NCBI GenBank assembly: GCA_002082305.1
Contig: LSNO01000081.1
Span: forward strand, 2,041-66,040
DNA length: 64,000 nt
Origin: SAR324 cluster bacterium SAR324-CTD7B
GTDB lineage: Bacteria > SAR324 > NAC60-12
Reading direction: 5' to 3'
Shown here piece by piece: positions 18,103-56,425 of this stretch. Below the pieces are notes generated by a model, which saw only the letters and a program-made list of their open reading frames with translations, made no database searches and had not been told where the DNA came from. Numbering within the stretch: the first letter of the stretch is position 1; the number at the start of each line of letters is the position of its first letter. The position numbers and the translations under genes were made by a program.

Positions 18103-18915
18103 GTGAGCAAAAACAAACTTATATTTTTGACTGCCTTCGTTGGTTTTGTGGGCCTAACTGTTTATGCTCTCTGGAAAGAAGTAAGCCGCGGCACTGCTCA
18201 ATTACAGTACAGCATCAGCGGTGTGATCCTTTCCGGTCCGGGAGCAAGAGGAATTGTCAAAACTGACAATGCTCATGTTTTGCTCTTTGATCCGGAAACA
18301 TTTGAATTGGTTGCTTCGAAAATTCTCAACCCTTTTTTACCGCCTTCAACATTTAGTATCGGACAGGATGACGCAAGTCAACCGCTCAGCGGCTCTTATC
18401 GCCTGCTTGTACTCACCGACAAAAATGGGGACCCAAATCTTCCTACAGCTGGAGAAGTCATTGGGCCTCTATCTCAGCCGTTACCTTTAGGAACTGAGGG
18501 AGTAAAATATTCTGTGGACCACCCTTTTCAGGTTTTTCCTGCGGAACTTTTGGCTGTCGAGACAGATTCTCCAGATACGAGTATCCGGGGCACAATCACC
18601 GTTGCTCCTGAATTGCAGAGTAAACTAGGTTTAGAAGATAGATTGGTGATCATGCTCTTTGATCCACAACAAGGCCGTCCTGTTGCCATCAAAATGCTCC
18701 CGAGTTTCAGGCCACCACAAAATTTCAGTATTGGCCAAACTAATGCTATGGGAGGTCAACAACTCAGTGGAAAGTATTCTCTCAGAATTCTTACTGATAA
18801 AAACAGTCAGCCGTTTCAATCTGTTCCTGGAGAAATAATAGGTCGTTCACAAGGTCTGATTTCTTTGGGAACCGGTGATTTGGAGTTTGAACTGGATCAG
18901 CCCTATATTCGCTAA
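18103..18915 (+). CDS. Hypothetical membrane-anchored protein with an internal tandem duplication
   Basis: One N-terminal TM helix. Two ~90-aa repeats (FSIGQDDASQPLSGSYRLLVLTDKNGDP... and FSIGQTNAMGGQQLSGKYSLRILTDKNSQP...). Lies 22 nt downstream of gltD. Confidence 0.55.
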   Translation: MSKNKLIFLTAFVGFVGLTVYALWKEVSRGTAQLQYSISGVILSGPGARGIVKTDNAHVLLFDPETFELVASKILNPFLPPSTFSIGQDDASQPLSGSYRLLVLTDKNGDPNLPTAGEVIGPLSQPLPLGTEGVKYSVDHPFQVFPAELLAVETDSPDTSIRGTITVAPELQSKLGLEDRLVIMLFDPQQGRPVAIKMLPSFRPPQNFSIGQTNAMGGQQLSGKYSLRILTDKNSQPFQSVPGEIIGRSQGLISLGTGDLEFELDQPYIR

Positions 18916-19096: not shown

Positions 19097-19855
19097 TCAA
19101 AAAATTACTTCCGGTCTGGCTATATTGAGAGCTTGATCAATATTTTCACGAAAGCAGGCACGGTTAGGGAAACCTCCGGGCTGAAGATATTTTTCCGGAG
19201 GTATGCTCTGCTCAAGCTCACGATTCTTTTTTGTGACGGTCATCTTTTCTCCAGTACGTCCGAGTCCACTCATTTTGAATCGATAATGAGCCTCCAGTTG
19301 TTCGTCATGAATCCGGAGGAAACAGAGCACGTAGTCCATGTTGGGATATTCCCGTGAATCTGGAGGAATGAGCTTGACCTCAGTCCATTCTGATTTTCGT
19401 TTCTGATATTTTTCCAAAAAACGAAATTGAGTCGTGAAAGTTTGCAAATAATTTTGCAGGATTGGATGCAGGTTAATCTGTAAATTAAGCCGTCCACCTT
19501 CAGTTAGTGCTTCATCACCGCCAAAAAGCAGATATAATCCACCCTGTTTGTCAGTTATCTGGCAGTCTGTAGATAAATTGAAATTCCAGCCGAAAGTTAG
19601 TTCAGAGCCGGCCTGCAGTGCAATATCCTGAGCTGCTACTTGTTTTTCGAGAACTTCCCAGGGACCCCCCGTACCTTCTTTGAAAGCTTTTTTTAAACCA
19701 TGTGCAAGAATAATTTGGGAAGTTTTTACAGCAACAGTTTTGCTGCTCATGTTCCTGATTCGAAGTTGACCTTTTACAACTTCTCCCTGATTCCATGACT
19801 CTCCCTCAACTTCAATTTGATGTTCCAGAGGTTGCTGAAAATATACGCTTCTCAT
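19097..19855 (-). CDS. Hypothetical protein
   Basis: 252-aa ORF with no family recognised by eye. Confidence 0.45.
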   Translation of the reverse strand: MRSVYFQQPLEHQIEVEGESWNQGEVVKGQLRIRNMSSKTVAVKTSQIILAHGLKKAFKEGTGGPWEVLEKQVAAQDIALQAGSELTFGWNFNLSTDCQITDKQGGLYLLFGGDEALTEGGRLNLQINLHPILQNYLQTFTTQFRFLEKYQKRKSEWTEVKLIPPDSREYPNMDYVLCFLRIHDEQLEAHYRFKMSGLGRTGEKMTVTKKNRELEQSIPPEKYLQPGGFPNRACFRENIDQALNIARPEVIF

Positions 19856-22713: not shown

Positions 22714-23181
22714 TTATAATACTACTTCTGTATCAGGATCTGTCTCCTTTTGAAGACGGTTTTCATCTAAAACAGCTAGCCGCAACAACCATCTCTGGAT
22801 AATGGCATAGGAAAACAAAAGTAAACCCAATGCGCCTGCATAATGCCGAACCGGCTCAAAGTAAGAAAGCAAAAAACTTGATCCAAACAACAGTAAAAGA
22901 ATTTTATTGCAAACCGAGCAGCCAAAACCGACAAATCCTAAAATTCCACCTATTCCCGCTTTTTTAGTGGCACAGTGTGGTGCCTGAATACCGAAGAACA
23001 GGCCAATTAAAAGTGATTCAAAACTGAGAATTATATAATCCCAGCCATTCACCTCTGTCATGCGGATGAAAAAGGAATTGTTCCAAAGAGCAGTAATTGT
23101 TCCCAACAGCAAAAAAGCTGCTGAAGCAATAATCAAGGTACTCAGCCATTCCTTTAAGCTTAATTGTTTTAATAATTTCAT
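22714..23181 (-). CDS. Hypothetical integral membrane protein
   Basis: 155 aa with about four predicted TM segments. Confidence 0.45.
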   Translation of the reverse strand: MKLLKQLSLKEWLSTLIIASAAFLLLGTITALWNNSFFIRMTEVNGWDYIILSFESLLIGLFFGIQAPHCATKKAGIGGILGFVGFGCSVCNKILLLLFGSSFLLSYFEPVRHYAGALGLLLFSYAIIQRWLLRLAVLDENRLQKETDPDTEVVL

Positions 23182-25761: not shown

Positions 25762-26664
25762 TTATTTTACAGGAACTTCTTTAATTTTTACACCAACCGT
25801 ATCAAAAAAATCAGCCAGTGAATCCTTTATATGTTCTATATCCATGCGGTCTTTGAAAACTATACCAAGTGTTGCTTTCACCATTTCCGGATCCAGATGG
25901 TCTTGATGCAGCATGACTAGTGACCTGGCCCAATCCAAAGTTTCTGCAACTCCAGGCACTTTTTCCAGCTTTTGCTCCCGAATCAATTCCATAAAAATGC
26001 ATATTTGTTTGGCGAGACGCAGATCTATTCCAGGAACTTTGCTCCGCACAATCGCCAGTTCTTTTTCGTAATCTGGATAATCCATCCACAAATAAAAACA
26101 GCGTCGGCGAACGGCATCCGATAATTCTCGGGTTCGATTGCTGGTCAAAATCACATAAGGTTTTTCCTTGGCACGTATGCTGCCGATTTCCGGAATAGTA
26201 ATTTGCCATTCAGATAATATTTCCAGCAAAAAACTTTCAAATTCCTCGTCTGAGCGGTCCAGTTCATCAATTAATAAAACCGGTGGTTTGTGATGCGTAA
26301 TCGCCTGCAATAAGGGACGTTTAAGTAAAAAATCTTCACTGAAAATAGTGGACTCCCGTTCAGCCAGTGATTTGTCACTACCCTCTTCAAGTTTGATATG
26401 GAGCAACTGACGCTGATAGTTCCATTCATAAAGCGCCATATTTGCGTCAAGTCCTTCATAACATTGAAGCCGAATCAAATCTGTATCCAGTGCTTTTGCC
26501 ATTACTTTTGCGATTTCCGTTTTACCTACACCTGCAGGACCTTCAACCAATAATGGTTTTTGGAGAGTTTTTGCCAAATAGACTGACATTACGATTGCTG
26601 AATCAGCCACGTAATTTTGTTTCTCCAGCATTTGCCGGATTTGTTTTGTTTCATTTGAAAACAT
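25762..26664 (-). CDS. MoxR-like AAA+ ATPase
   Basis: Walker A GPAGVGKT, Walker B LLIDELDR and the MoxR helper-ATPase architecture. Confidence 0.8.
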   Translation of the reverse strand: MFSNETKQIRQMLEKQNYVADSAIVMSVYLAKTLQKPLLVEGPAGVGKTEIAKVMAKALDTDLIRLQCYEGLDANMALYEWNYQRQLLHIKLEEGSDKSLAERESTIFSEDFLLKRPLLQAITHHKPPVLLIDELDRSDEEFESFLLEILSEWQITIPEIGSIRAKEKPYVILTSNRTRELSDAVRRRCFYLWMDYPDYEKELAIVRSKVPGIDLRLAKQICIFMELIREQKLEKVPGVAETLDWARSLVMLHQDHLDPEMVKATLGIVFKDRMDIEHIKDSLADFFDTVGVKIKEVPVK

Positions 26665-26705
26665 AAATTATTCCGTTATTAGTCCCGTGCATTCGTTACG
26701 GCAAC

Positions 26706-27134
26706 TCAAGTTTGGTGTTGTGCAGCACAATCTTCAAGCGCATCCCACGCCAGTCTCATGCACTTGATGCGGCTCCGATGCGGTTTCAAGTCAATCAACG
26801 GACGCAGAGATTCTATAGTTTCAGGAATATCCTCAGTATCTTTTCGGAGGCTTTTACTAAACTCTTTACTGATCTGCAGTACTTCTGACAGAGTTCTTTC
26901 CAAAATAAACTCGCTCATCATTGAAGCCGAAGCAATACAAATAGAGCAGCCCCGTACTTGTGTCCTGCAGTCATGAATGGTTTCTCCGGACAACGCTAAA
27001 GTCAGTTCCAACTCATCTCCACAAAGCGGATTGAAAGCGGATGCCTTCAAATCCGGATGCTCCAAACATCCCGAATATTTTGGGTGTCGTGCATGATCCA
27101 GCAACAGATCCCTGTAAATAGAATTAGTACTCAT
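26706..27134 (-). CDS. sufU: SufU/IscU-like Fe-S cluster assembly scaffold (zinc-dependent sulfurtransferase)
   Basis: Conserved NPLCGDELEL and GCSICIASASMM motifs. Start taken at MSTNSIYRD (27134), one nt after the sufS stop. Confidence 0.75.
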   Translation of the reverse strand: MSTNSIYRDLLLDHARHPKYSGCLEHPDLKASAFNPLCGDELELTLALSGETIHDCRTQVRGCSICIASASMMSEFILERTLSEVLQISKEFSKSLRKDTEDIPETIESLRPLIDLKPHRSRIKCMRLAWDALEDCAAQHQT

Positions 27135-27135
27135 A

Positions 27136-28389
27136 TCAATCCAAAAAAATATCTCTAGCTCGATCAAGTGAGGAAAACAAACGGTCGATTTCTGAGACTT
27201 CGTTGTATATCCCAAAACTCATGCGAACGCTTGCCGCGACTCCGAGCCGCTCATGCAGAATTTGCGTGCAGTGGTGTCCGGCACGTACTGCAATTCCACT
27301 CTCGTCCAGAACTTGCGCGACATCGTGAGGATGCACATTCCGGAGGTTGAAACTCAACACGCCAGTTCGGTCGCAGGTATCCTGAGGTCCATAAAGTTCC
27401 AGATCTGAAAACTCTGCGAACCTGTTCAGCGCATGGGCAGTGAGTTCTTTTTCATGCTTTTGAATTTCAGAAATTCCGACATCAGATACATATTCCAAGG
27501 CTGCCGCCAATCCGGAAACTTCGGCCACGGGAGGAGTTCCCGCTTCAAATTTTTGCGGAGAATCCGCCCATGTGGAAGATTGCCGCCCGACTTGGCGAAT
27601 CATTCCGCCGCCGCCTTGAAACGGCTGCATTTCGTCGAGGCGTTCTTTTTTTGCGTAAAGCACCCCGATTCCTGTTGGACCATAAACTTTGTGTCCGGAA
27701 AAAGCGAGGAAATCGCAATCCAATCCGGAAACGTCTATCGGCATCCGTGCCACTGCCTGAGCTGCATCCACCAAAACCGGAATGCCGCGTTCGTGTGCCA
27801 TTTCTACGATTTTCGCAATGGGATTAACTGTTCCTAAAACATTGGAAACTGCAGTTACTGCAAGCAGTTTAACAGAATCTGTCAGCAATTCTTCCAACTC
27901 TTCCAATTCCAAAAGACCGACACTGGTGCTTCCGGCTTCCGGAGTGATTGGCCAGTACACCAATTCCGCTCCGGATGCTTGTGCGGCCATTTGCCAAGGT
28001 ACCAGATTGGAATGGTGTTCCATTTCGGTCACGATGATCCGGTCTCCCGTTTTTAAATTGTGTTGCGCCCAAGCTGAAGCAACAAGATTGATTGACTCCG
28101 TGGTTCCGCGGGTAAAAATTATATTTCCGGAATCCGTTGCGCCAATAAATTTCGCAATGCTTTCACGGCCTTCTTCGTAAATTTCCGTTGCTTCTTCGGC
28201 AAGCGTGTAAACTCCGCGGCTGACGTTACTGTTGTGAGTTGAATAAAAGTCCAACAGTGAGTCGATCACGCAGTTTGGCTTTTGAGTAGTAGCTGCATTG
28301 TCCAGATAAGCCAGAGGGAAGTCGTTAATTTCACGTTTGAGAATTGGGAAATCATCTCGTACTTTTGATGCCAACGGATGGTGTTGCAT
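27136..28389 (-). CDS. sufS: Cysteine desulfurase, SufS family
   Basis: PLP-lysine region SGHKVYGPTGIGVLY and the C-terminal catalytic cysteine loop RAGHHC. Confidence 0.9.
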   Translation of the reverse strand: MQHHPLASKVRDDFPILKREINDFPLAYLDNAATTQKPNCVIDSLLDFYSTHNSNVSRGVYTLAEEATEIYEEGRESIAKFIGATDSGNIIFTRGTTESINLVASAWAQHNLKTGDRIIVTEMEHHSNLVPWQMAAQASGAELVYWPITPEAGSTSVGLLELEELEELLTDSVKLLAVTAVSNVLGTVNPIAKIVEMAHERGIPVLVDAAQAVARMPIDVSGLDCDFLAFSGHKVYGPTGIGVLYAKKERLDEMQPFQGGGGMIRQVGRQSSTWADSPQKFEAGTPPVAEVSGLAAALEYVSDVGISEIQKHEKELTAHALNRFAEFSDLELYGPQDTCDRTGVLSFNLRNVHPHDVAQVLDESGIAVRAGHHCTQILHERLGVAASVRMSFGIYNEVSEIDRLFSSLDRARDIFLD

Positions 28390-28493
28390 TTTTTTGCGCT
28401 AAAAAACAACCACAGATTTGCGCGGATTAGCACAGAAATATTATCTGTTTTGTCCGTTTTGTCTGTGGCTAATATCAGGATTCAGGGACAAAC

Positions 28494-29279
28494 TTATTTC
28501 AATTCCATCATTGATTTTCCGGAACCGCCGCGACGGATGGTCACCATTTCACCGACAATGCTCAAAGCTATTTCTTCAGGAGTCGTTCCGGCAAAATCCA
28601 AACCTGCTGGAGAATGTACCCGCTTTAATTCTTCAGGAGCAACACCTTCATCGAGTAAATACTTAAAGACCAGTTTTGCCCGCTTGGTGCTGGCCACCAA
28701 ACCGATATACGGCCCATGTCCCTCCAAGGCCTTTTTGATCGAATGCTGGTCGCCTTTATGTTGAGTAACAACCACGACATAAGTCTGCGCCCCAATTTCC
28801 ATTTTGCTGAAATCCAAATCAGAAGTGATTAAATGTTCCGCCATCGGGAAGGCTTCACTGGTCGCTCCGGAATCGTTGACAGTGATGGAAAAATGAACCG
28901 TGTGAGCCAATTCTGCCAAAACCTCAGCGATGCGTCCGTGTCCTACAATCATTAATTCCGGACGTGGCATATATGGTTCTACATATACTTCCATTGTGCC
29001 GCCGCAAGGCATTCCAACACCTAAAATTTCATCATCGAGATCAAGGGGAACAATCCGGGTTTGGCCGTCACGCATACTTTCCAGAGAGGCTTCCCGCACT
29101 GCTTCCTCCGCGCAACCACCGCCGACCCAGCCGAATACGGTTTGTCCCTTGCTGTCAATAATAGATTTCGCTCCGGGTTTAGCGGAAACCGATCCGGTAA
29201 TTTTGATTACTGTTGCCACCGCAAACGGAACTTCCGCCGCATTAAATTCTGCTAATTTTTCAAAATATTCGTTGGACAT
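28494..29279 (-). CDS. XdhC/CoxI family molybdoenzyme maturation factor
   Basis: XdhC_CoxI N-terminal domain plus Rossmann-like domain (LMIVGHGRIAEVLAELA). Confidence 0.75.
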   Translation of the reverse strand: MSNEYFEKLAEFNAAEVPFAVATVIKITGSVSAKPGAKSIIDSKGQTVFGWVGGGCAEEAVREASLESMRDGQTRIVPLDLDDEILGVGMPCGGTMEVYVEPYMPRPELMIVGHGRIAEVLAELAHTVHFSITVNDSGATSEAFPMAEHLITSDLDFSKMEIGAQTYVVVVTQHKGDQHSIKKALEGHGPYIGLVASTKRAKLVFKYLLDEGVAPEELKRVHSPAGLDFAGTTPEEIALSIVGEMVTIRRGGSGKSMMELK

Positions 29280-29381
29280 TTTTTGTCGCTTTGCTTCTAG
29301 TAAAATTATAGGTAGTGATTCAGCAAGAACTTATTGTTCTGCAATGGCTTCCTCTGTTATTGAGTCTCAAATAATGTAATT

Positions 29382-29975
29382 TTAATCCGTACAAAACATC
29401 TTATAATCTTCCGGAGTATCCACATCCCGTAAAACGTTATCATTTCCCATTTCGACTTCCCGGACACACTCCGGATGTTTTAATACAATGTCCCTGCAGC
29501 CCTCACCTTTGTGTTGTAAAATAATGTCTCTGAATTGACTGGAAAACAAAACCGGATTGCCGCGCTGTCCTTTAAAAACTGGAACAATAATCAAAGAACT
29601 TTCAGAATCGAATAAATCAGTAAACTCATGAATTAAACGATTAAAATCGGAGGTTTCAATGAACGGTTGATCAGCAAGGCATATCAGCAAGCCTTCACTT
29701 TCCGCAGATGCAGCCTGTATTCCGGTTTGAATAGAGGATGTCATGCCCTCCATGTAGCGCAGATTTTCTACAAACCGCACCGGTTGCCCCTGTAAAACGT
29801 CTTCGATTTTTTCTGCTTCGTGACCAACCACTACCACTACTTCATCTACGTTTGAGGCACAGACCGATTTCACAAAGTTACGGATCAACACTTCCCCGCT
29901 GATTGGCAGGAGGAGCTTGTTTTTCACTCCCATTCTCCGGGATTCACCGGCGGCCAGAATGATTGCGGAAATCAT
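29382..29975 (-). CDS. MobA/MocA-like molybdenum cofactor nucleotidyltransferase
   Basis: Opens AIILAAGESRRMGVKNKLLLPISGEVL, the NTP_transf_3 N-terminal motif. Confidence 0.7.
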   Translation of the reverse strand: MISAIILAAGESRRMGVKNKLLLPISGEVLIRNFVKSVCASNVDEVVVVVGHEAEKIEDVLQGQPVRFVENLRYMEGMTSSIQTGIQAASAESEGLLICLADQPFIETSDFNRLIHEFTDLFDSESSLIIVPVFKGQRGNPVLFSSQFRDIILQHKGEGCRDIVLKHPECVREVEMGNDNVLRDVDTPEDYKMFCTD

Positions 29976-30009
29976 TGCAGAAAAAAACTAAAAATGCACC
30001 GTAATGTTT

Positions 30010-30588
30010 TCATTCCAATTCTGCTTTTTTGCCAAACTTTCTTTTGAGTTCAGACACAATAATTGAACCAACAAGTGATGCTGCTTTGACCGGTTCTGCT
30101 TCTGAAGGAACCTCATCCACATTGCCTCTTTCATTTTCTTGTGTAAGCAAATTGGAAAAATTCTGGATGAATTGTTCAAAGAGTTTGTTATTTACAGCTT
30201 CAATCATGCGTGAACCAAACTGAGCGATCCGGCCCGTGATAGACACAGTCATAATGCACGAAATTTCAGTGAATGTTTCATGCGCATTTAGAGAGAGTTC
30301 CATGTTCATCGTTGCTCCTCCTTTTCCGCTGATGTCTGCTCCTTTTCCTTCCATTGACAGTTCGTAAGTTGAACTGTCCCGTTGAGTGAATTCAACGTCG
30401 CCATTAAATTTGGCTGTCACAGGACCGATTTTAATTGTTACTTTGCCTTTGAAGTGATCCTCATCAATGGTCTCAGTGAGTTGTGCCCCCGGAACACAAA
30501 CTACTATTTTTTCGGGATTAGTGAGGACTGTCCAAACTGAATCGATATCCGCATTGACCAGAAATTTTTTGTCGGCTTTAACTTTCAT
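30010..30588 (-). CDS. CoxG-like SRPBCC family protein (carbon monoxide dehydrogenase subunit G-like)
   Basis: 192 aa with a CoxG/SRPBCC fold pattern. Clusters with the XdhC and MocA homologs. Confidence 0.65.
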   Translation of the reverse strand: MKVKADKKFLVNADIDSVWTVLTNPEKIVVCVPGAQLTETIDEDHFKGKVTIKIGPVTAKFNGDVEFTQRDSSTYELSMEGKGADISGKGGATMNMELSLNAHETFTEISCIMTVSITGRIAQFGSRMIEAVNNKLFEQFIQNFSNLLTQENERGNVDEVPSEAEPVKAASLVGSIIVSELKRKFGKKAELE

Positions 30589-51591: not shown

Positions 51592-52536
51592 CTATCTGTT
51601 CAATTTTACTGGAAGAACCTCTACAGTTTCTTCCAGTAAAAATTCTTTTTGAATGATACTTTGAATCGAAGCAGCTAATTTTTGAAAACACACTTTTCTA
51701 TTGGAAGTTTTCCGAAATAATAATCCAACTCTTCTGGCAGGCGCAGGGTTTTTAAACGGAATATATTTGATAGAAGCATTTTGAATTAGATTATTATAAT
51801 CAATTGCAGTTTGTGGAATCAGGGTAATTCCAATACCAGTAGATACCATATGTCTGATTGTTTCCAGACTTGTACCCTGGAAATCTTTTCTTTCTTTGGT
51901 CATGGCTTGTGAACAAACATCCATAACCTGCCCTCTCAAGCAATGACCTTCTTCCAGTAATAATAGAGTTTCATCCTGCAAATCCTCTATCTTGATAGAT
52001 AATTTAGCAGCAAATGGGTGCTGATTGTTAGCAGCAACATAAAATGGTTCTGTGTATAGAATGATCTCTTCAAGTCCTCTCATTTCTAGAGGAACTGCTA
52101 AGATTCCTGCATCCAATGTTCCTTCACTCAGTTTTTTCAACATAACTTCTGTTTGAACTTCCTGTAAGATAATTTCCAGTTGAGGATAGGCTTGATTTAT
52201 AGGTTGCACAATCAAGGGCAAAAGATAAGGTGCTATTGTTGGAATTAGACCAACATTGAGTGTACCGCTCATTGGATCTGTATAGGTTGAAACCATATTT
52301 TCAATGGAAGCCGCATCAGCCAAAATTCTCCGTGATATTTTTACTATTTCTTCACCAATGGGTGTCAAAAAGACATTTCTGGTGGTTCGTTCTACCAGTT
52401 GAGCGCCAATGTGGTCTTCTAATTTTTTTAGTTGTCCGCTCAAAGTGGGTTGGCTCACAAAACATTTCTCTGCTGCTTTTCGAAAATGTTTTAATTCGCC
52501 GATGGCTGAAAGATATTCCAGATCTCTCAAATTCAT
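51592..52536 (-). CDS. oxyR: LysR-family hydrogen peroxide-sensing regulator OxyR
   Basis: N-terminal HTH (LRDLEYL...VSQPTLSGQLKKLE). Both redox cysteines are conserved in context: EEGHCLRGQVMDVC versus E. coli EDGHC199LRDQAMGFC208, followed by TSLETIRHMV. Start taken at MNLRDLEYL. Confidence 0.8.
   Translation of the reverse strand: MNLRDLEYLSAIGELKHFRKAAEKCFVSQPTLSGQLKKLEDHIGAQLVERTTRNVFLTPIGEEIVKISRRILADAASIENMVSTYTDPMSGTLNVGLIPTIAPYLLPLIVQPINQAYPQLEIILQEVQTEVMLKKLSEGTLDAGILAVPLEMRGLEEIILYTEPFYVAANNQHPFAAKLSIKIEDLQDETLLLLEEGHCLRGQVMDVCSQAMTKERKDFQGTSLETIRHMVSTGIGITLIPQTAIDYNNLIQNASIKYIPFKNPAPARRVGLLFRKTSNRKVCFQKLAASIQSIIQKEFLLEETVEVLPVKLNR
51608..51651 (+). terminator. Intrinsic terminator hairpin for ilvBN: 11-bp perfect stem TACTGGAAGAA/TTCTTCCAGTA with a 10-nt loop, then a U-rich tract AAAATTCTTTTT. 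It overlaps the 3' coding end of oxyR on the opposite strand.
   Basis: The perfect inverted repeat was read directly from the sequence. It lies in the convergent junction between ilvN and oxyR. Confidence 0.45.
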
Positions 52537-53197
52537 TAAACACTCCTCAAACAAAAGGTTAATCTGTATTAATTGATGTTACCAATCAGAATAACAAAAT
52601 TAAAAGATTAAACAAATCAATTTAAATATTTTATATTTACACTGAGTTCATTGAGGGCTAAAGGGGAGTTTATACCCGGGGTTTAGAGCAGACTTGAGCA
52701 TGAGAAAGAGGGATATGGAACTTCAGTCAGCAGGCTGATGGCGTTATAGCTTTGGCTTCAAGTCTCTTGTTTTATCACACAATCCAGCAGATCTTTTCCA
52801 TGCTGTTCAGATCATAACCACTTTCGTCAATGTTGACCTGTTAGTCCACATCACCATTGACAACGATATAAAAACCCTTGCCATGCATTCCAAGCCTGCC
52901 CTTCGAAACATCTAGTTCAAGGTCGAGTTTCTTGGAGTATTCATCTTTAAACTGTCTTCGGGCATCTGATCTCAATTGGAAATGGGCATTGTCGTTATCT
53001 TCTTCGTTATTTCGGTTGGGTGCTCACTCTGAGATTTCTCTAGTCGGAATGCAAAGATTGCAAGAAGCACCTTCTCATTTGAAAGTTTTTAATGACTTTG
53101 CCAAGGCGTATTGTTGTTCCTTCATTTCTTCGCTGCTCTCTATCGATCATTGAATTGATAGTCAATGCCTGTCAAAGTCATCGAAACAAACGATTAG

Positions 53198-55489
<2,292 letters not shown>

Positions 55490-55523
55490 TCCATGTCTGC
55501 GGAATGGTTCATAGAGAGAAGTA

Positions 55524-55757
55524 TCACAAAAAATGTGAAACAAGATATTTCCGGATATCTTTTGCTTCTTTCATTGGACCATCTTGAGTTATTAGGCAGG
55601 GGACCATCACATCCCCTGTCAGTTCTACAAGTTCTTTCGCATAGTCCGGATTCAGGCGGATATCCTTGAATGTAAATTTATCTTTTATTTTTAGCGTGGA
55701 AATCGTATTCAGCACAATCTGCGAATATTCACAGTCTTCATAAAAATAAAGTTCCAT
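55524..55757 (-). CDS. Glutaredoxin-like / NrdH-like small thioredoxin-fold protein (CxxS active site)
   Basis: 77 aa with an N-terminal Y-E-D-C-E-Y-S motif and a thioredoxin-fold pattern (VPCL...G). Lies between katG and the peroxiredoxin. Confidence 0.55.
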   Translation of the reverse strand: MELYFYEDCEYSQIVLNTISTLKIKDKFTFKDIRLNPDYAKELVELTGDVMVPCLITQDGPMKEAKDIRKYLVSHFL

Positions 55758-55844
55758 TCACTGTGTGTCAGATTAAAATTCCCAAAAAAAAAGGCGGTCT
55801 TAATTGAGACCGCCTGTATGATTTTAAAAAAGATTTCCAGTCGC

Positions 55845-56303
55845 TCAGCTGTTAACCTTTTTGCACTCAGCTAAAAGCTCGCCAATAATGCGCTCTCCAT
55901 CTGCCATAACGGAATATCGAACCGAGCCTTGCTTGTCTACTATAACTGTTGATCGAGCTGCGAATCCCTTATTCTCCAAATAAGCCCCATAAGAAGTCGA
56001 CATGGCGCCTTTTGGATGGAAATCCTGCAGCAGTGGATAAGACACACCGCCAAGGGATTCGGCCCATTTTTTATGTGAATGTTTACTGTCAATGCTCACA
56101 CCCAATACTTGAGTGTCTGCCTCCTTGAATCGATCAATCATCGACTCAATTTTGGGTATTTCCCTGCTTCATGTGGCTGTCCAATCTAATACATAAAACA
56201 CCAGCATTACATTCTTTTCTCCCTTGAACTCACTCAGGGAAAACTCCGTATCAAACTGACTGGCCAATTTAAAATCCGGTGCTTCCGAACCAACTGCAAT
56301 CAT
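55845..56303 (-). CDS. Peroxiredoxin (Bcp/PrxQ-like) with an in-frame TGA (56169..56171) at the peroxidatic cysteine position. Putative selenocysteine-containing peroxiredoxin; alternatively a pseudogene.
   Basis: Manual translation from the ATG at 56303 gives MIAVGSEAPDFKLASQFDTEFSLSEFKGEKNVMLVFYVLDWTAT[TGA]SREIPKIESMIDRFKEADTQVLGVSIDSKHSHKKWAES.... This aligns with Bcp (...VVLYFYPKDDTPGCTTEA...GISPDSPESHKKFAEK...). The TGA falls exactly on the TxxC peroxidatic Cys. The ORF track lists only the C-terminal part, 55845..56141. Confidence 0.6.
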
Positions 56304-56425
56304 TAATACCTCCAAAGAATTATTTGAAAAAGCCCTGAAAACAACATGAATTCAGAGTAAACGTAAACTGTGACTAACAGCCGAAAGATGGGGATAACTC
56401 GGTTGTCAAATTGATCTGACTAAAC

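Follow-up and report, generated by a model that had tools for sequence, protein, structure and literature searches.

A probable selenocysteine peroxiredoxin of AhpE-like type from a marine SAR324 bacterium

To our knowledge, PrxU of Eubacterium acidaminophilum, reportedly described by Sohling and co-workers in 2001, is the only biochemically characterised peroxiredoxin with selenocysteine (Sec). It is cited as an experimental precedent for Sec-peroxiredoxins (PMC13188914). In the Global Ocean Sampling (GOS) selenoproteome, the entry "Prx, pfam00578, TxxU" comprises 253 sequences from 34 samples and is sixth in the table by sequence count (Zhang and Gladyshev, 2008; PMC2398784), and a survey from 2016 counted 91 Sec-peroxiredoxin genes with the TxxU motif in 78 organisms (PMC5029168). 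TxxU Sec-peroxiredoxins are an established, abundant marine selenoprotein family, and the orthologous group treated here, catalogued since 2008, was already known. Another described relative is AhpE, a one-Cys enzyme recycled by the glutaredoxin homolog mycoredoxin-1 (Mrx1) (PMC4360819). Here we analyze a 64,000-nucleotide stretch of contig LSNO01000081.1 of the SAR324 cluster bacterium SAR324-CTD7B (the whole stretch is called the window below), in which a peroxiredoxin gene on the minus strand (55845-56303) contains a single in-frame TGA codon. Judging from this gene and its relatives, it very probably (we put the probability at about 0.92) encodes a Sec-containing, AhpE-like peroxiredoxin.

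The peroxiredoxin gene and its in-frame TGA codon

The gene and the elements that define its reading frame are as follows:

55845..56303, minus strand: predicted Sec-peroxiredoxin gene, AhpE-like, AhpC/TSA family; 152 codons plus the terminal TGA stop (translation, Pfam)
56169..56171, minus strand: in-frame TGA, codon 45; predicted to encode the peroxidatic selenocysteine of the TxxU motif
56309..56313, minus strand: Shine-Dalgarno sequence GGAGG, 5 nt 5' of ATG 56303 (read from the sequence)

Translation of the minus strand from ATG 56303 to the terminal TGA (55845-55847) gives 152 codons with a sole internal stop, the TGA at 56169-56171 (context FYVLDWTAT*SREI). The original prediction had proposed a complete peroxiredoxin with this single TGA at its peroxidatic Cys, and its coordinates and sequence hold. 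The start codon is shared with the aligned homologs, all of which begin MI.VG. With Cys placed at codon 45, the protein matches the Pfam family AhpC-TSA (PF00578) at 1.1e-34 (119.5 bits, cutoff 26) over positions 1-123 of the 124-position model. The TxxU motif reads T42-A-T-U45; in the homolog alignments Thr-42 is conserved and Arg-117 invariant, while a C-terminal Cys-147 is found in 64 of 80 homologs and is missing mainly from those of the Binatia type.

Conservation was followed in two sets of sequences: (i) 80 loci, the best 80 of at least 582 matching stretches in species-representative genomes (47-92% identity), from SAR324, Binatia, "Deltaproteobacteria"/Myxococcota, Planctomycetota, Acidobacteriota and a few other groups, and (ii) 93 sequences, made up of these loci, the window and twelve metagenome contigs (47-100% protein identity). 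With at least 582 relatives and the sixth place in the GOS table, the family is not the sparse one it had been taken for. Codon 45 is TGA in 92 of the 93 sequences (79 of the best 80 loci) and GGA in one; TAA or TAG occurs in none. No further in-frame stop or frameshift was found in any homolog gene examined: the TGA is kept, and the gene is neither split nor absent. Within SAR324, where dS is often saturated, dN/dS ranges from 0.04 to 0.23 for the parts before and after the TGA alike, and it is about 0.2 for the window against L013, the closest genome. Both the near-universal TGA and the purifying selection on the two halves bear out the earlier argument for Sec over a chance nonsense codon.

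A full-library search with the C-terminal fragment retrieved Cys homologs of 35-48% identity (P0133, P0145, P0154 and P0158 among them), which have C exactly in the TGA column (FYPLDFTPTCS, FYPLDWTPICS, WYPLDWSPTCT) and encode this peroxidatic Cys by TGC. The alignment thus confirms where the TGA lies. The window gene is 100% identical at the nucleotide level on six independent metagenome or metagenome-assembled genome (MAG) contigs, and 607 index blocks of public assemblies, MAG GCA_016764275.1 among them, contain the exact 98-aa C-terminal fragment. The closest species-representative genome is SAR324 cluster MAG FRAM18_bin343, with 92% (Prx), 97% (OxyR) and 94% (HflK) identity to the window.

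The Pro of the PxxxTxxC/U motif is replaced by Val-38 (GTA, 56190-56192) in the window and the six identical contigs, and is retained in all other, non-identical Sec-type homologs. The GTA codon is two nucleotide changes away from CCN, and the gene is still under purifying selection; Val-38 is a lineage-specific substitution and no argument against peroxiredoxin homology.

The sole homolog without TGA (L067:10132-10134, Planctomycetota MAG BC2.32) has GGA (Gly), one nucleotide from TGA, and keeps a strong hairpin 3' of this codon. An error in sequencing or polishing, a recent inactivating mutation or some other cause could account for the GGA.

As to subfamily, the gene had been called a Bcp/PrxQ-type peroxiredoxin, which the comparisons do not support. 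The top seven PDB matches are AhpE structures (Mycobacterium tuberculosis Rv2238c or an AhpC/TSA homolog; E 3e-27 to 2e-26), followed by 2-Cys Prx1 types at 3e-22, with BCP structures far below at about 1e-12. No NCBIfam model passes its cutoff for the window peroxiredoxin: the top model is PrxU (NF040737, 72.9 bits, cutoff 270), and Bcp (PRK09437, 43.7 bits, cutoff 140) and PrxQ (NF053650, 41.6 bits, cutoff 260) score lower still. Membership in Bcp/PrxQ and in the PrxU equivalog was rejected on these scores. In these comparisons AhpE comes out as the nearest type, and we call the protein AhpE-like.

The hairpin downstream of the TGA codon

A hairpin with an 8-bp stem and a 5-nt loop (56127-56147), 21 nt downstream of the UGA, had been proposed as a plausible selenocysteine insertion sequence (SECIS). 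It is present, its distance is exact, and its stem extends to 10 bp:

56125..56149, minus strand: SECIS-like hairpin, 10-bp stem UUGAGUCGAU/AUCGAUUCAA with loop GAUUG (minimum free energy (MFE) fold)

The extended stem begins 20 nt and the GAUUG loop 29 nt past the UGA, and the 76 nt around the hairpin fold at z = -3.15 relative to dinucleotide shuffles. The window hairpin fits the criteria of bSECISearch, which we take to be an apical loop that lies 16-37 nt past the UGA, measures 3-14 nt and has a G near its beginning; the closest SAR324 relatives also have an early G.

Most of the 80 homologs have a predicted hairpin with an apical loop starting 24-33 nt past the UGA, although the stem sequences differ. 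Within the gene, stability peaks in the 45-nt stretch that starts 9-12 nt past the T of the TGA (mean -18.7 kcal/mol), compared with averages of -8 to -13 kcal/mol for 45-nt stretches elsewhere over most of the gene. Against within-gene shuffles of synonymous codons this stretch gives a mean z of -1.8, with z below 0 in 95% of the 80 genes, whereas four control stretches give mean values of 0 to -0.4. For a helix of 11 bp in fixed register, 67% of cells are paired and the covariation score is 0.272; with the partner strand slid, these values fall to 32-49% and about 0.10-0.13. Four Cys homologs have no excess structure at the site (z of +2.0, -0.8, -0.55 and +1.1). Structure has been selected here beyond protein coding, at the site expected for a bacterial SECIS; the ortholog hairpin at the same distance exceeds what coding explains, in keeping with the original prediction.

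Competing readings of codon 45

Several observations weigh against Sec at codon 45. Pfam and NCBIfam scans found no selA, selB or selD among the long open reading frames (ORFs) of the window; ARAGORN found no tRNA-Sec in the window or in 60 loci, and Rfam none in the window; and an exact-protein look-up to the left of the window edge gave acetyltransferases and unannotated genes only, with no Sec machinery. In the 2016 survey, two single-cell genomes of SAR324 appear as "orphan SelD", with no other Sec parts or selenoproteins detected (PMC5029168), and this listing is all that was found in the literature on SAR324 and selenocysteine or selenoproteins. Both single-cell genomes are incomplete assemblies, and the present gene suggests that the label is an artefact. 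On the RNA side, RNAalifold gave no consensus structure for the gap-free 80-sequence alignment because helix register and loop size shift between lineages; it was replaced by the count for a hand-specified helix and the alignment-free synonymous-shuffle test with control stretches described above. A G stands in the first two loop positions in only 16 of the 80 MFE folds; some true bacterial SECIS elements fall outside the bSECISearch model (PMC9312934). Finally, Val-38, in place of an otherwise universal Pro, could lower the activity of the enzyme.

Part of this evidence would also agree with a pseudogene, in which a chance nonsense mutation struck the catalytic codon of a decaying gene: gene callers yield pieces of 44 and 98 aa, the active-site Pro has become Val in the window population, and Sec machinery was not seen in the window. 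A decaying gene is at odds with an identical TGA in 92 of 93 sequences of several phyla that lack further stops or frameshifts, with dN/dS of 0.04-0.23 on both halves (including the value of about 0.2 against L013) and with 100% identity on six independent contigs. This conservation pattern effectively refutes the pseudogene, which we regard as extremely unlikely. It is hardly more credible that the locus makes two products, one an N-terminal peptide of 44 residues and the other a C-terminal protein of 98 residues starting at Met-55. Met-55 lies inside the conserved hairpin, with no evident ribosome-binding site, the nine codons from the TGA to Met-55 show conservation at the protein level, and the C-terminal fragment would be missing the catalytic residue together with the first half of the AhpE thioredoxin fold. 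SAR324 does have an ATG (Met-55) after the TGA, which gene callers use, but any ATG within 20 codons 3' of the TGA is present in only 15 of the 80 homologs, and the downstream part is therefore generally no separate gene.

A further reading has UGA-45 translated as Trp, Cys or Gly, through an altered code or near-cognate suppression. Many database entries indeed give W under code 4, and the one Planctomycetota homolog has GGA (Gly) at codon 45. In the window, TGA is an ordinary stop that terminates 13 of 46 long ORFs, among them the peroxiredoxin gene at the point where its homologs end too; the genome thus has the standard genetic code, and the gene caller accounts for the W calls. A peroxidatic Trp or Gly would give a dead peroxidase, contrary to the strong purifying selection, the Cys homologs use TGC, and a conserved 3' hairpin is the hallmark of SelB-dependent decoding. 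Taken together, these points make a standard residue very improbable and favor the reading of UGA-45 as Sec.

Partner gene, locus context and known relatives

The original prediction had placed the peroxiredoxin gene beside katG and a glutaredoxin-like gene. Both adjacencies are real; the glutaredoxin-like gene is a conserved neighbor, whereas katG is not. The former is:

55524..55757, minus strand: 77-aa glutaredoxin-like protein with N-terminal CEYS (CxxS); Pfam Glutaredoxin and GST_N_3

A glutaredoxin-like gene lies directly 3' of the Sec-peroxiredoxin gene in 30 of the 80 genomes, from several phyla, with identities down to 29%; the N-terminal motif in these adjacent loci is CxxS in 26 and CxxC in 4. 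In addition, P0108 of the Sec type and many Cys homologs are Prx-Grx fusions of about 250 aa. This pattern makes the 77-aa protein a likely reductant partner of the Sec-peroxiredoxin.

With UGA-45 read as Sec, the following cycle can be proposed. The hairpin at 56125-56149 would recruit SelB with Sec-tRNA(Sec), and UGA-45 would be decoded as Sec. The Sec-45 selenolate, aided by Thr-42 and Arg-117, would reduce H2O2 or organic hydroperoxides and be converted to a selenenic acid, which could be resolved by two routes: (i) Cys-147 may react with it to form a selenenylsulfide, or (ii) the adjacent 77-aa monothiol (CxxS) glutaredoxin-like protein may act on it directly, presumably with glutathione, analogous to the reduction of one-Cys AhpE by mycoredoxin-1. 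We infer these catalytic steps and the electron donor.

A broader proposal, to which we give somewhat less than even odds, is that the Sec-containing AhpE-like peroxiredoxin and its adjacent or fused CxxS glutaredoxin-like protein form a dedicated two-component selenoperoxidase system. Such a system would occur widely among uncultured SAR324, Binatia, Myxococcota, Planctomycetota and Acidobacteriota, and would be recognised by no curated model and hence systematically truncated in records; in it, Val would work in place of a supposedly indispensable Pro. If this proposal were true, SAR324, listed as "orphan SelD", would be a genuine selenocysteine user.

The stress-related genes near the peroxiredoxin gene are:

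53303..55489, plus strand: katG, catalase-peroxidase, divergent from oxyR (NCBIfam catalase/peroxidase, 1272 bits)
51592..52554, minus strand: OxyR-type LysR regulator (NCBIfam OxyR PRK11151, 326.6 bits, cutoff 329)

The GC content of katG is 56-65%, compared with about 40% around it, with sharp composition edges, and the gene is absent from all 80 GTDB loci. The slot beside oxyR carries genes for rubrerythrin, a CCG-domain protein and DUF3501 in the SAR324 relatives L007-L012, ORFs matching these in size and orientation in L013, and still other genes on contig L005 of the same population. From this composition and distribution, katG is an apparently recent, population-specific, horizontally acquired GC-rich insertion outside the conserved unit. 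A functional katG-prx operon was considered and rejected: katG is on the opposite strand, GC-rich and missing in relatives. The regulator gene oxyR is syntenic in SAR324 relatives, and its true start is probably an ATG 18 nt inside the listed TTG ORF because the OxyR profile aligns from residue 7 (Met) onward. The peroxiredoxin gene sits in an oxidative-stress neighborhood, formed in the window population by oxyR and the acquired katG.

The slot at 52555-55523 looks like a swappable, OxyR-adjacent peroxide-defence cassette. The oxyR-katG interval within it (52555-53302, about 750 nt) holds only short ORFs of 41-91 aa.

Two further elements flank the peroxiredoxin gene. On its 3' side lies:

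55784..55815, minus strand: intrinsic-terminator-like hairpin AGGCGGTCTC..GAGACCGCCT followed by a T-run, 30 nt past the prx stop (terminator scan and sequence)

About 30-50 nt 5' of the start, an inverted repeat CTGAA-N11-TTCAG (56335-56355) is kept among SAR324 relatives whose synonymous sites are saturated (the window and L013, with near-matches in L014 and L016), and is possibly an operator for a regulator.

Elsewhere in the window, a molybdenum-hydroxylase maturation cluster (25762-30588; XdhC-family factor, MocA cytidylyltransferase, CoxG and MadB/MoxR-type AAA ATPase) adjoins SufS and SufU, SufS being a cysteine desulfurase. The class-V aminotransferase of the window, considered as a selenocysteine lyase, is this SufS (SclA model 208 bits, cutoff 525), and the ORFs of the window that match selA, selB and selD in size are malic enzyme, MetRS and NuoH. 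For three ORFs of 155-270 aa (18103-18915, 19097-19855 and 22714-23181), neither Pfam nor NCBIfam gave a match at E <= 1e-5. When the window was searched for other ORFs joined across a single TGA, all candidates besides the peroxiredoxin gene were antisense or overlapping artefacts.

That standard gene callers would miss or truncate this gene had been anticipated, and public records agree. The ORF list of the window has it only as pieces of 48 and 98 aa. All full-length-looking database homologs show W at codon 45 (P0001-P0035, P0048 and P0108), and some of them run beyond the true TGA stop; because P0001 also reads through its terminal TGA (..VNSWATVNLF), the W is a code-4 translation of TGA, which means that short contigs were gene-called with genetic code 4. 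The remaining entries (within P0036-P0120) are mostly fragments of 98-104 aa, and the few that are named in their source are labelled AhpC.

The main significance of the locus lies in this annotation: the gene and hundreds of its orthologs are stored as 98-aa "AhpC" fragments or as proteins with a spurious Trp. Once recognised, the gene would provide SAR324, a lineage among the most abundant of the deep ocean, with a selenium-dependent defence against peroxides, and it offers an explanation for the "orphan SelD" of SAR324 single-cell genomes. To a family already catalogued, the present analysis adds (i) the assignment to SAR324, (ii) the AhpE-like type, (iii) the breadth across phyla, (iv) the conserved monothiol glutaredoxin-like partner, (v) the systematic mis-annotation and (vi) the Val-for-Pro substitution of the window population. 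No biochemical study of the AhpE-like Sec-peroxiredoxin subtype was found in the literature, and the Prx/Grx-like pairing suggests an electron donor for it.

Of the described systems, Bcp/PrxQ (E. coli Bcp) shares with the window protein the superfamily fold and the position of the PxxxTxxC motif, but is clearly a more distant relative than AhpE. PrxU of E. acidaminophilum likewise has Sec at the peroxidatic position of a peroxidase with the AhpC/TSA fold; it differs in size (a model of 233 positions against 152 residues in the window) and in its host, a strict anaerobe of the Firmicutes.

Among solved structures, AhpE (Rv2238c) is the nearest, with residues 1-135 of 152 aligned and a length of 153 aa. 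AhpE is recycled by the glutaredoxin-type mycoredoxin-1, and the window family has a glutaredoxin-like neighbor and fusions. Unlike the window protein, AhpE has Cys instead of Sec and no counterpart of Cys-147, and its thiol system is mycothiol-based and actinobacterial. The GOS Prx (TxxU, pfam00578) belongs to the same orthologous group, with matching TxxU motif, Pfam family and marine origin. Reads JCVI_READ_1010494 and JCVI_READ_1092743 of GOS Dataset S1 are annotated with U (MLFFYPLDWTYTUSKEIPKLES...) (PMC2398784), and the former and the window protein share 83% identity across 119 residues. The GOS catalogue gives no taxon, genomic context or subfamily; the gene described here comes with all three, and its population has Val where the motif has Pro.

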